Shown here: piece by piece, positions 5,606-35,888 of the stretch
How positions within the stretch are numbered: the stretch's first letter is position 1
Layout: every line of letters begins with the position of its first letter
Assembly: GCA_016840405.1 (NCBI GenBank)
Contig: JAEOSK010000016.1
Span: forward strand, 1 to 60,601
Length of the DNA stretch: 60,601 nucleotides
Source: Candidatus Hermodarchaeum yapensis
GTDB lineage: Archaea; Asgardarchaeota; Hermodarchaeia; Hermodarchaeales; Hermodarchaeaceae
Direction of reading: 5' to 3'
The notes under the pieces: generated by a model
Database searches by the model: none
Seen by the model: only the letters and a program-made list of their open reading frames with translations
What the model was told of the DNA's origin: nothing
Translations under genes and position numbers: made by a program

Positions 5606-6886
5606 TTATTTTTTCGATTTAGATTTACTCCAAAAATCAGGCACTTTTCCTTCCCTAGGACCCCAAGGATCGGGATAATCTTTTCCGGAATAGCTTAGAC
5701 GGAAGCCTGTGTCCAGTTCTGTTACTTGGGTTTCTTTGAGAATGGCTTGTCCAGCGACCAACCGTTGGATTTGGTTTGTGCCTTCATAGATTTGGGTGAG
5801 TTTGGCGCCGCGCATCATTTGTTCGGCGGGGTATTCTTTGGCATAACCGTAGCCGCCCATGATTTGGATGCAGTCAAGAGTGTTTTGCATGGCAGCATCG
5901 GTGGCGAAAAACTTGGCGCAGCTGGATTCTTTGGTGTTACGTTGCCCCTGATCGACAAGCCAAGCAGAGTAACGCGTAGCCCAACGAGCGTGCATGGCTC
6001 TGGATTCCATATCTGCGAGCATGAAACTGATACCTTGGTAGGCTCCAATGGGCTTACCAAACTGTCTGCGGTGATTAGCGAAAATGGCGGCTTCATGGAC
6101 AGCGCGTTGAGCGATACCTACGCCAAGAGCTGCGATGCCTGCTCGAGTGCGGTCGAGGGTTTGCATGGCGTACTTGAACCCTTTGCCAACTTCGCCGAAA
6201 AGGCAATCATCCGGGATGCGGACATCTTTGAATTCGATTTCAGCTTGAAAGGATGCGCGTTGGCCTAATTTGTCCTCAAGCATGGTCACTTCAATTCCAG
6301 GTAATTCTTTGTCCACTAGGTGAAGGGCCATTCCCTTGTAACCTTTGGTTGGATCGACAGTGGTGAAGACTGTGAGAAATTTCGCGATATGGCCGTTAGT
6401 GCTGAAGCATTTTCGACCATTTATGACCCATTCATCACCATCTTTGGTAGCAAGTGTTTTTACTGCTGCAGCATCTGATCCGGCTTCACGTTCAGTTAGA
6501 CAGAAAGCGGCGAATTGAGGTTCTTTGCCCGTGGCAAAAGGTTTGATGTATTTTTCCATTTGTTCTGGCGTCGCAGTAATCAAAAGAGGTGTTAGTGCTA
6601 AGTTATTTGCCATGAATGTAGTGGCAACACCACCATCACCATAACCAAAAGCTTCGCCAATGAGGGTTTCGTCAACCATTGAATGCCCAGGTCCACTGTA
6701 TTTTGTTGGAACGTGGCTGTTCATAAGTCCAGCATCAAAAGCTAATTGTGCGAGTTTCCATGGAAATTCGTCAGCTTCTTCAAGCTCCCGAGCATAAGGA
6801 ACAATATACTTCTTGGAAAACTCCATGGCTGTGTCAAAGATTTTTTGTTCTTGTTTGGAAAGAGCAAAATCCACCATTAAATTCAA
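5606..6886 (-). CDS. acyl-CoA dehydrogenase
   Basis: FCLTEREAGSD, INGRKCFSTNG, RRQFGKPIG, GGYGY, IYEGTNQIQR. Confidence 0.96.
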   Translation of the reverse strand: MNLMVDFALSKQEQKIFDTAMEFSKKYIVPYARELEEADEFPWKLAQLAFDAGLMNSHVPTKYSGPGHSMVDETLIGEAFGYGDGGVATTFMANNLALTPLLITATPEQMEKYIKPFATGKEPQFAAFCLTEREAGSDAAAVKTLATKDGDEWVINGRKCFSTNGHIAKFLTVFTTVDPTKGYKGMALHLVDKELPGIEVTMLEDKLGQRASFQAEIEFKDVRIPDDCLFGEVGKGFKYAMQTLDRTRAGIAALGVGIAQRAVHEAAIFANHRRQFGKPIGAYQGISFMLADMESRAMHARWATRYSAWLVDQGQRNTKESSCAKFFATDAAMQNTLDCIQIMGGYGYAKEYPAEQMMRGAKLTQIYEGTNQIQRLVAGQAILKETQVTELDTGFRLSYSGKDYPDPWGPREGKVPDFWSKSKSKK

Positions 6887-6996
6887 CCTCGCTTCGAGTG
6901 GGGCGACTAGTTATTAATCCCGCTTAAAAGTGTGCGGTTCGCTCGACACAAAACTTTGCTATACAGTAGTCAGACCGGATTGCCACGGAGTATATC

Positions 6997-7004
6997 TTTA
7001 TATA
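6997..7004 (+). promoter_or_regulatory. TATA box upstream of structured RNA copy 1
   Basis: TTTATATA. Confidence 0.45.
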
Positions 7005-7062
7005 TCGCTGGCTATCAAGTTTACAATGGACCGGGCTTAGGGTCATTCAACTTGACTGAGTG

Positions 7063-7172
7063 GTCACTGTAGCGGCGAGAAGTATTGGCACCTCTCTCCC
7101 CCCTAGAAAACCATTCCCTCTCCGATGTTTTCATTTTACCAGAGGTGTCTAATCCGCCAATGCTCCAGTGGC
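7063..7172 (+). ncRNA. candidate structured ncRNA, copy 1 of a dispersed two-copy element
   Basis: Long imperfect hairpin; 28-nt loop ctcccccctagaaaaccattccctctcc (7096-7123) identical to 35125-35152; stems covary between copies. Confidence 0.65.
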
Positions 7173-7292
7173 AATACACTAGTATTCTCCACATATCTTC
7201 TGGATGAAATTTTTTTTCTTGCATAGTGAGTAACTTTAAGTAACGGGGCTTTGAGCATAATTCAAACTAAATTCCTGAAGGAGTTTGGATTA

Positions 7293-7871
7293 ATGGAAAC
7301 TCATGAAGATAAAAGCGGACAAGCATTTCGAAAGTTTCTACGAAGAAATACAAGAATGGCATTAGCCATTACTATAGTACTCGCAGTAGCTGCTATTGTC
7401 GCAGTTTACGTATTTTTCAAAGTTGTAGCTGATGCACAAGTGCTAGGAATCGTGCCAACTACCCTTGGACTATGGTCCGTCGGCACAGTTTTCGTATTTT
7501 GCATCACAGTGGTTATCTGGGAACTTATCTTTGTCGCAATTTGGCTTATTCCAGTAGTAATAGTCATATTCATTCTATGGTACAGAAAACTACCAGAAGA
7601 AGAACGAAAAGAGTACGGTATGTCCCCCAAACGTGGAACCGACCCCCGACGTACCGAAGGCAGTGGGTTCTTTTCATTTTTGGTTAGTGTGGTATGGCTG
7701 ATAATTGTGTGGATCACCGGAAGGTGGACCCTCCCCTTTAATGCATGGACATTCAATGACTTCGTATATACGTGGTTTATCGCATTTCTCTGGATTCTAG
7801 TGCCTGCTTTCATTGCCGGGACAATATTCCTAATCTGGTGGTTGCGAAAAGAGCCAAAAGAAGAATCCTAA
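7293..7871 (+). CDS. hypothetical membrane protein (about 4 TM)
   Basis: Hydrophobic segments; AAGGAG SD before ATG 7293; T-run after the stop. Confidence 0.8.
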   Translation: METHEDKSGQAFRKFLRRNTRMALAITIVLAVAAIVAVYVFFKVVADAQVLGIVPTTLGLWSVGTVFVFCITVVIWELIFVAIWLIPVVIVIFILWYRKLPEEERKEYGMSPKRGTDPRRTEGSGFFSFLVSVVWLIIVWITGRWTLPFNAWTFNDFVYTWFIAFLWILVPAFIAGTIFLIWWLRKEPKEES

Positions 7872-35058: not shown

Positions 35059-35066
35059 TTTAAATA
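35059..35066 (+). promoter_or_regulatory. TATA box upstream of structured RNA copy 2
   Basis: TTTAAATA preceded by purine-rich BRE-like gaaaaggaag, about 25 nt before the hairpin. Confidence 0.5.
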
Positions 35067-35091
35067 AAAAAAAGAAACCTTATAGTTGGGA

Positions 35092-35206
35092 ATACTGGGT
35101 TTGGCGAAAGATATTGGCACTTCCCTCCCCCCTAGAAAACCATTCCCTCTCCCCTCCAATTGTGTCCTTTTTAAGGAGGTGCCTAATCCGCCATAAAACC
35201 CAGTAT
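35092..35206 (+). ncRNA. candidate structured ncRNA, copy 2 of a dispersed two-copy element
   Basis: atactgggttt/aaacccagtat outer stem, ggcacttcc/ggaggtgcc inner stem, same 28-nt loop as copy 1, pyrimidine tract after. Confidence 0.65.
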
Positions 35207-35285: not shown

Positions 35286-35888
35286 ATGTTTAAGCATCAG
35301 TTTCTTTTAGATAATGTGAGGGATTCATTTTCTGTGAATGAGTTTAAGGTTTCTAGTCCGCCTTCATTGTTCACCCGTTTTCGAGAACGATTTTCGTCTT
35401 GGGGTCCTTGGCGACGAGTTTTTTTCATAATTGGAATTTATGCCCTACTGTCTTGTATTCTAATGTTGCTGTTCTGGATTTTTCCGCCTCCTATTATTAT
35501 CAGGAGCCCTGGGTGGGAACCATATGTTGAACTGGCTAGCAATTGGACAATTATCATTCCAGTGGGGATGATAGTTGTCAGTGTTTTTGTAACTAATATT
35601 GTGTTTAGGATTCCAGAGGATACACGATTTATTCTTCGATTCGTTACTCTCTTGGTTTGTGTTGAAATTGCTGTTCTAGCATCATGGAATGCTTTGGAGG
35701 CGTATATCAATTGGTACGTGATATTGGCTCCATTACTAGGACTTGAAATTCCAATCGACCCGTTTCAAAATGTATGGTTCTTATCTACTTTTCTACGGTT
35801 TATTGGTTTACATCGTCTGTTTGGTTTCTTGTTCCTTATTGGGTTAGGTGTCATGGTGATAGCACTACTTCTTGAAAATATAATCTAA
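35286..35888 (+). CDS. hypothetical membrane protein (about 4 TM)
   Basis: Hydrophobic segments; start uncertain. Confidence 0.7.
   Translation: MFKHQFLLDNVRDSFSVNEFKVSSPPSLFTRFRERFSSWGPWRRVFFIIGIYALLSCILMLLFWIFPPPIIIRSPGWEPYVELASNWTIIIPVGMIVVSVFVTNIVFRIPEDTRFILRFVTLLVCVEIAVLASWNALEAYINWYVILAPLLGLEIPIDPFQNVWFLSTFLRFIGLHRLFGFLFLIGLGVMVIALLLENII

Follow-up and report, generated by a model that had tools for sequence, protein, structure and literature searches.

We found that the hairpin element at 7062-7172 (+), here called copy 1, in a 60,601-nucleotide stretch of DNA from Candidatus Hermodarchaeum yapensis (the window, that is, the whole stretch that was analysed) gives rise to an 81-nt circular RNA. 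The hairpin itself is a precursor, in which a frame of GGCG and CGCC with 3-nt bulges constitutes a BHB splice motif that was absent from an earlier, sequence-only reading of this DNA. Copy 1 is very probably one of four paralogous stand-alone Hermodarchaeota genes, each dedicated to a small circular RNA. In the proposed pathway, the gene would be transcribed from its own TATA promoter through to a T-tract, and the precursor, as sequence and covariation show, folds into an hBHBh' structure. Based on the geometry of this structure and on the presence of the corresponding genes, the tRNA-splicing endonuclease (EndA) would cleave each bulge behind its second nucleotide, whereupon RtcB would close the excised piece into the ring 7080-7160. 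The two 'exons' are the arms of the outer helix alone, devoid of conserved sequence, and the ring would most likely act in trans as an exonuclease-resistant platform whose loop binds a partner.

Precursor hairpins and the BHB motif

The window contains two long hairpins, copy 1 and copy 2 (35091-35206, + strand). They share a 28-mer, CTCCCCCCTAGAAAACCATTCCCTCTCC, which is identical at 7096-7123 and 35125-35152, both on the + strand; chance expectation for such a match is none, and it was obtained in 0 of 100 shuffles. The sequence-only reading had pointed out a common frame around this loop (GGCG, ATTGGCAC and GAGGTG(T/C)CTAATCCGCCA), a compensatory change in the inner stem, and outer stems that are unrelated in sequence and nevertheless keep their pairing in both copies. 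All of these features were recovered. In the inner stem, GGCACCTCT/AGAGGTGTC of copy 1 stands against GGCACTTCC/GGAGGTGCC of copy 2, including one replacement of T-A by C-G. Because the G-U wobbles are located at different positions in the two copies, their inner stems pair solely on the + strand. Folding energies on this strand were -36.1 kcal/mol (z -5.0) for copy 1 and -34.7 kcal/mol (z -4.8) for copy 2, whereas the - strand folds were far less exceptional (z -1.6 and -2.9, respectively). Features of the two copies in the window are listed below.

6994-7001 (+): TATA-like CTTTATAT of the type A gene (copy 1), conserved in 14/14 aligned type A loci, ~60 nt 5' of the stem
7062-7073 (+): outer helix P1, 5' strand, in the short 5' 'exon'; pairs with 7162-7172
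7074-7077 (+): central helix, 5' strand GGCG; pairs with CGCC at 7155-7158
7078-7080 (+): 5' bulge AGA; predicted cut between 7079 and 7080; the RNA contig joint starts at 7080
7080-7160 (+): excised 81-nt circular RNA (RNA contig joint in run X1; circular fold)
7087-7095 (+): inner stem P3, 5' strand GGCACCUCU; pairs with 7141-7149; stem of the ring
7096-7123 (+): invariant loop segment CUCCCCCCUAGAAAACCAUUCCCUCUCC, exact in both window copies, predicted to be unpaired in the ring
7106-7132 (+): putative small helix P4, GAAAAC (7106-7111) with GUUUUC (7127-7132), from minimum-energy folds
7141-7149 (+): inner stem P3, 3' strand AGAGGUGUC, from the fold and the family alignment
7155-7158 (+): central helix, 3' strand CGCC, which becomes part of the small junction loop of the ring
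7159-7161 (+): 3' bulge AAU; predicted cut between 7160 and 7161; the RNA contig joint ends at 7160
7162-7172 (+): outer helix P1, 3' strand, in the short 3' 'exon', from the fold and covariation
7212-7219 (+): T8 tract, likely archaeal terminator of the precursor
35091-35206 (+): type B paralog (copy 2), with TATA TTTAAATA at 35059-35066 and ring 35109-35194 (86 nt)
35103-35106 and 35189-35192 (+): central helix GGCG:CGCC of the type B BHB, with bulges AAA (35107-35109) and AUA (35193-35195)

In a canonical pre-tRNA, the intron is located between positions 37 and 38 and the cuts are made after the second nucleotide of each bulge. Copy 1 has a canonical hBHBh': the outer helix has 11 bp and the central helix 4 bp, each strand contributes one 3-nt bulge, and an inner helix lies beyond the bulges. 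Its strand arrangement follows the pre-tRNA order on both the 5' and 3' sides. The same geometry, a 4-bp helix between opposite-strand 3-nt bulges, was found in 61 of 63 family copies. The central helix occurs in several covarying variants (GGCG:CGCC, AGCG:CGCU, GGCA:UGCC, AACG:CGUU and CGCG:CGCG). A 5' bulge of 3 nt that begins with A is present in all 61 BHB-bearing copies, and A is nearly always the first nucleotide of both bulges. The helix inside the bulges has 3 bp in types B, C and D; in type A, it is weak (A.C, G.U and U-A) and is followed by the 9-bp P3. The type A BHB is therefore slightly relaxed next to the 5' bulge.

Certain copies departed from this pattern. The type C copy of this genome (G000:C21:22058-22166, - strand; L069) has a C.A mismatch in the central helix (GGCG vs CACC), and its closest relative, L073, has CGCC; the mismatch could mean that the splice signal is truly weaker in this copy, or it could stem from an error in the assembly. 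In two copies from the sister genus, L093:301-399 (+) of genome G017 and L137:301-398 (-) of genome G016, the loop ...CCCCCCUAGAAAAACCAUUCCCUCUCCCCUCCAAUUGUGUCC... is kept and the central helix and bulges are absent. Such copies may have decayed, may be variants that stay linear, or may be processed through a different signal.

Covariation was examined with type-specific and model-based alignments, as combined MAFFT alignments misaligned the outer stems of types A and B, which is also why RNAalifold gave only 12 pairs. Among type A orthologs, two-sided changes were seen at 6 of 11 outer-helix pairs, and in the whole family all 11 pairs changed on both sides. When the 63 family copies were fitted to the covariance model, a procedure that somewhat favours the modelled structure, 22 of 25 pairs showed changes on both sides and 89.5% of cells were paired, compared with 34-44% when partners were slid; none of 500 shuffles attained the observed pairing values. 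For the 9-bp P3, 6 of 8 modelled pairs changed on both sides family-wide and 94.8% of cells were paired. The alignment contained 114 G-U cells vs 60 A-C cells, an excess that supports the + strand. Formation of the candidate helix P4 would place CAUUCCCUCUCCGAU in an apical loop. Sequence variation in this segment is low, and an analogous pairing of an A-run with a U-run occurs in types B and C.

The excised ring

RNA evidence came from low-depth assembled contigs of two sediment metatranscriptome runs (X1 and X2) of two studies, both of which cover a short part of the sequence; stretches without contig cover are uninformative on expression, and the small word shares in X1 and X2 are no evidence of habitat. 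Contigs were compared with 6850-7450. One X1 contig of 111 nt matched with 0 mismatches in two pieces, 7080-7127 and 7098-7160, and unambiguously joined 7160 back to 7080 ('goes back 81'). This joint, for which the evidence is one assembled contig (depth 2.2) in one of the studies, falls exactly after the second nucleotide of each bulge, that is, at both predicted cut sites. In the second study, an X2 contig carried a type B joint, CCGCCAT/AGATATTGG (the slash marks the joint), that matches the predicted 86-nt ring 35109-35194; the loose ends of this contig read ...CCGCCAT/AGA and then TATTGGCAC.

Predicted ring lengths across the family ranged from 77 to 108 nt, the commonest being 81 nt. Circular folds of all four types consisted of a 12-14-bp rod between two end loops. 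One end is a 6-7-nt junction loop containing CGCC. The other is a 45-60-nt pyrimidine-rich loop whose core, CCAUUCCCUCUCC, is predicted to be unpaired, with an occasional small A-run:U-run helix or inserted hairpin. The loop core UAGAAAACCAUUCCCUCUCC hardly changes between paralogs, between species or between the two genera, and reads GAAAACCAKUMCCUCUCC family-wide; several of its positions differ in type D. Because the 'exons' lack conserved sequence while the loop of the ring shows almost no variation, the functional product is in all likelihood the ring. The genome also encodes candidate processing enzymes: the EndA domain (PF01974) was detected on contigs C14 (104 bits) and C36 (71 bits), and RtcB (PF01139) on C74 (510 bits), with a partial match on C61.

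Rings of type B were larger in several species (for example L003:1426-1559 on the - strand, L004, L011, L014, L023 and L025), which carry an extra hairpin of 16-22 nt. It consists of UGUCC-loop-GGACA followed by AAUGUCC, resembles a local GUGUCC duplication, and extends the ring from 86 to 102-108 nt; the invariant core is untouched.

Gene units, family distribution and rival explanations

Both the TATA-like box 5' of copy 1 and the T-tract 3' of it had been noticed in the sequence-only reading, and the former is retained in every one of the 14 orthologous loci. Around this box is a conserved block, GTATATACCTTTATATG, which the type A gene has in common with an acyl-CoA dehydrogenase gene that runs divergently. 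Assuming the usual archaeal TATA-to-start spacing, type A transcription would start at ~7025-7030, and the T8 tract is likely to be the transcription terminator of the precursor; T-runs are found ~10-45 nt 3' of the stem in most orthologous loci. In type B, the TATA TTTAAATA is invariant and lies ~25 nt 5' of the stem. The type A block itself (6985-7006), conserved in 14/14 loci, includes a pair of TATA-like motifs in opposed orientation and could drive transcription in both directions.

Gene order around the rings was also conserved. Throughout the genus, type A has the divergent acyl-CoA dehydrogenase gene on one side and, on the other, a gene for H+-pyrophosphatase in convergent orientation. 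Type B follows an ADP-forming acetyl-CoA synthetase alpha gene and is itself followed by a convergent DUF4147/MOFRL (glycerate-kinase-like) gene. No linked gene for an RNA-binding protein was found at any of the four paralogs, which are surrounded by unrelated metabolic genes. This genome has + strand ORFs after copy 1 (7293-7871) and copy 2 (35286-35888). The two ORFs share no relationship, neither matches a Pfam family, and most orthologous loci lack them; no conserved + strand gene was found there downstream of either type A or type B. Since these ORFs are unrelated and mostly missing, copies 1 and 2 should be regarded as stand-alone genes and not leaders. The start of the small membrane-protein ORF 7293-7871 (7317-7448) was matched by contigs of both RNA runs with 6 differences. 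This ORF occurs in only a few species of the genus, and a close relative of it is present in the RNA libraries.

Besides A (copy 1) and B (copy 2), searches with a covariance model built from type A identified the following two paralogs, which brings the number in this genome to four.

G000:C21:22058-22166 (-): type C, found with the type A covariance model
G000:C44:5834-5951 (+): type D, found with the same model

Outside the window, the loop word was found in all 14 other species of the genus, mostly in two copies, which correspond to orthologous types A and B. In the type A and type B copies of these 14 sister species, the 23-mer core of the loop never shows more than one base change, and the stems vary. 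The type A model detected 3-5 copies per genome in the sister genus. A second model, built from 40 copies, had matches in 19/19 genomes of the class, with 3-5 copies in most (1-5 across these incomplete assemblies). Its application to 132 other Asgard genomes gave two weak matches alone (L132 and L133), neither of them convincing. When metagenome contigs were scanned with a pattern, 23 of the 43 loci obtained were family members, and a search of viral contigs for the family gave no match.

We also asked whether the ring belongs to a known class of RNA. Consistent with the sequence-only reading, in which no RNA family had been recognized, a whole-window Rfam scan had nothing at the gathering score, and the best match in a permissive scan of 6950-7300 had E = 3.8. 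Neither the window nor any of 61 doubled rings yielded a tRNA prediction with ARAGORN, and the 11-bp outer helix has no tRNA features, so that a tRNA or tricRNA was rejected. Similarly, the C box RUGAUGA was present in 0 of 61 doubled rings, excluding a C/D box sRNA, and K-turn, C/D and H/ACA motifs were not seen by eye. A Y RNA of a Ro RNP was rejected as well: the TROVE domain (PF05731) had no match in this 86%-complete genome, and there was no Y_RNA hit at E<=10. Finally, the + strand ORFs of 40-44 aa over both copies switch frame at a 5-nt indel and the nucleotides downstream remain conserved, indicating that the conservation is not protein-coding; a small protein was therefore discarded. 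Canonical full-length genes for 5S rRNA (77.6 bits), SRP RNA (120.8 bits) and RNase P RNA (166.2 bits) are located elsewhere in the genome, and the ring is thus not a permuted version of these housekeeping RNAs. With regard to the larger rRNAs, the 16S match (G000:C71:619-4212, - strand; L103) spans 3.6 kb for a 1478-position model, so that this gene carries about 2 kb of insertions (introns), and the 23S gene is divided between contigs C17 and C60 in overlapping pieces.

These data bear on several other explanations. The copies might be linear hairpin sRNAs or cis-acting leaders, with the ring as a rare by-product or an assembly artefact, and the + strand ORFs that follow both copies, together with the one low-depth contig for the copy 1 ring, could be read in this way. 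We consider it improbable. At the majority of orthologous loci a convergent gene comes next, and in this genome the T8 tract separates copy 1 from its ORF, on which grounds a cis-leader or riboswitch was rejected; moreover, a plain hairpin has no need of a BHB geometry held by covariation in 61/63 copies, and the joint lies exactly at both predicted cut sites, with a paralog joint in a second study. The earlier proposal of a multi-copy, structured + strand non-coding RNA under structural selection was upheld, whereas its cis-regulatory alternative was not, the next gene being mostly on the opposite strand. It is still less probable that the ring is a circularly permuted or otherwise disguised known RNA (tRNA, 5S, SRP RNA, C/D box sRNA or Y RNA) restored by splicing. 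Its size is tRNA-like and BHB-mediated restoration of permuted RNAs is known (PMC4731332), but the Rfam, ARAGORN, C and D box, and TROVE/Ro searches described above were all negative (Rfam with the unrotated sequence), canonical genes for 5S, SRP and RNase P RNAs exist elsewhere, and four diverged paralogs are unlike a housekeeping RNA. A mobile or DNA-level element (MITE, att site or origin repeat) appears extremely unlikely. Several copies with inverted-repeat arms might suggest such an element, and a MITE end had been named in the sequence-only reading as an outcome that would overturn it; however, there are just 3-5 copies, each syntenic across 14 species, the arms covary instead of being conserved, the G-U pairs give a strand asymmetry, viral contigs lack the family, and a joint was observed in RNA.

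Candidate partners and relation to known circular RNAs

With regard to the partner of the ring loop, a sequence-specific RNA-binding protein or RNP is the foremost candidate, with a likelihood that we place a little short of even. Short purine-rich (Shine-Dalgarno-like, GGAG-rich) RNA segments are a possible but less probable partner, and the chance that the ring does something else is slightly smaller again. A protein or RNP is somewhat likelier than an antisense target because the invariant stretch includes an A-rich part and no extended target was found. Apart from the strands antisense to the ring genes, the 86%-complete genome has no complement to the ring of at least 13 nt. Searches for exact complements of 11-13 nt, a genome-wide RNAduplex scan and a search for the motif GGAGAGGKAMTGG gave nothing beyond these antisense strands and G-rich stretches of a generic kind. 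Additional word hits on contigs C53, C12, C8 and C40 were attributed to chance, and a bipartite target at C3:60423 was dismissed as antisense to an ORF.

A sub-case of the dedicated ring gene, with the partner named, is that the ring is an antisense, anti-Shine-Dalgarno-like regulator, whose CCUCUCC and CCCCUCC loop would block or tune GGAG-rich ribosome-binding sites, circularity serving longevity. The ring loop is predicted to be single-stranded and is CCUC-rich, the 16S 3' end of the organism has the canonical anti-Shine-Dalgarno ...GGAUCACCUCCU, GGAG precedes the window gene at 7293, and the complement of the core resembles a ribosome-binding site plus AUG. Nevertheless, we regard this sub-case as rather doubtful: the genome has no mRNA complement of at least 13 nt, the best other duplexes being generic G-rich ones and the C3 match being antisense to its ORF; the 20-28 invariant nucleotides, A-rich part included, exceed what a short seed needs; and type D is without the AUG complement. 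A broader and quite tentative proposal, built on the dedicated ring gene, is that Hermodarchaeota have genes solely for regulatory circular RNAs made by the tRNA-splicing machinery. Being long-lived, such rings might serve as a sponge or scaffold, either of ribosome-binding sites or of a protein that binds pyrimidine tracts. They would then be what circRNA sponges and tricRNAs are in eukaryotes, and would belong to a wider Asgard habit of stand-alone BHB rings.

Archaeal BHB introns (tRNA introns) are excised by EndA and circularised by RtcB, and the Haloferax tRNA-Trp intron is a C/D box sRNA whose excised ring is the functional product. Further substrates of the endonuclease are rRNA processing stems and introns and the cbf5 mRNA intron. 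To our knowledge, in the known BHB/RtcB cases (tRNA introns, rRNA stems, a few mRNA introns and SRP RNA) the ring either arises as a by-product or serves to restore an RNA that is already known. Archaeal BHB introns resemble copy 1 in their hBHBh' geometry, cut positions and stable excised ring. The Hermodarchaeota ring differs in that it has no host gene, has its own promoter and terminator, is flanked by 'exons' that are outer-helix arms, lacks C/D boxes, belongs to no known family and occurs as 3-5 paralogs. A BHB intron has also been described in the 5' UTR of HVO_1309 (PMC7714728), permuted tRNAs are substrates of archaeal splicing endonucleases (PMC3978253), and circular RNAs of unknown function have been seen in Sulfolobus (PMC3326292). 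Also similar in organization are the SRP RNA of Thermoproteus, which is permuted and becomes circular via a BHB (Plagens et al. 2015, PMC4731332), and the circular pre-rRNA intermediates (PMC12918454), as these are stand-alone non-tRNA transcripts that obtain their functional form by BHB cleavage and ligation. However, a known housekeeping RNA is restored or processed there, whereas the Hermodarchaeota ring matches no known RNA. Metazoan tricRNAs are small, stable tRNA-intron circles whose function is unknown or regulatory (PMC4536317). They are likewise made by a homologous splicing endonuclease and RtcB, but they are by-products of tRNA genes, whereas the Hermodarchaeota gene is dedicated to its ring. 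Bacterial sRNAs with C-rich loops (RsaE/RoxS type) have C-rich motifs in unpaired loops that could pair with Shine-Dalgarno sequences. The likeness lies in the presentation of such motifs by a loop; these sRNAs are linear, bacterial and unrelated in sequence, and pairing by the ring is putative.

A full-text literature search found no paper that describes, for Asgard archaea, a family of stand-alone genes for rings, and recent work on circular 23S rRNA and Asgard tRNA introns made no mention of such genes. BHB biogenesis as such has precedents, and the novelty lies in the dedication of a gene to the ring and in its uncatalogued product. Here, a splice signal frames a gene without a host function and the ring is the sole conserved product, pointing to a dedicated circular small RNA in one Asgard class. 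Asgard archaea are the closest prokaryotic relatives of eukaryotes, and the family offers a concrete, testable case for functional circular RNAs before eukaryotes as well as a natural template for the production of stable rings. It also suggests that standard RNA annotation (Rfam and tRNA finders) overlooks a class of archaeal genes.

A separate observation concerns the two weak matches outside the class, L133:1495-1623 (-) in G049, a genome of another Asgard family, and L132:1495-1611 (-) in G026, which had E values of about 0.003-0.005 per genome. L132 folds poorly. L133 folds with a 14-bp outer helix (z -5.3) and a relaxed BHB-like junction (CGG:CCG, with bulges of 4-5 nt), and also has a helix of CCUAGAAAA with a U-run plus a C-rich loop; this locus may be a distant relative of the Hermodarchaeota rings.
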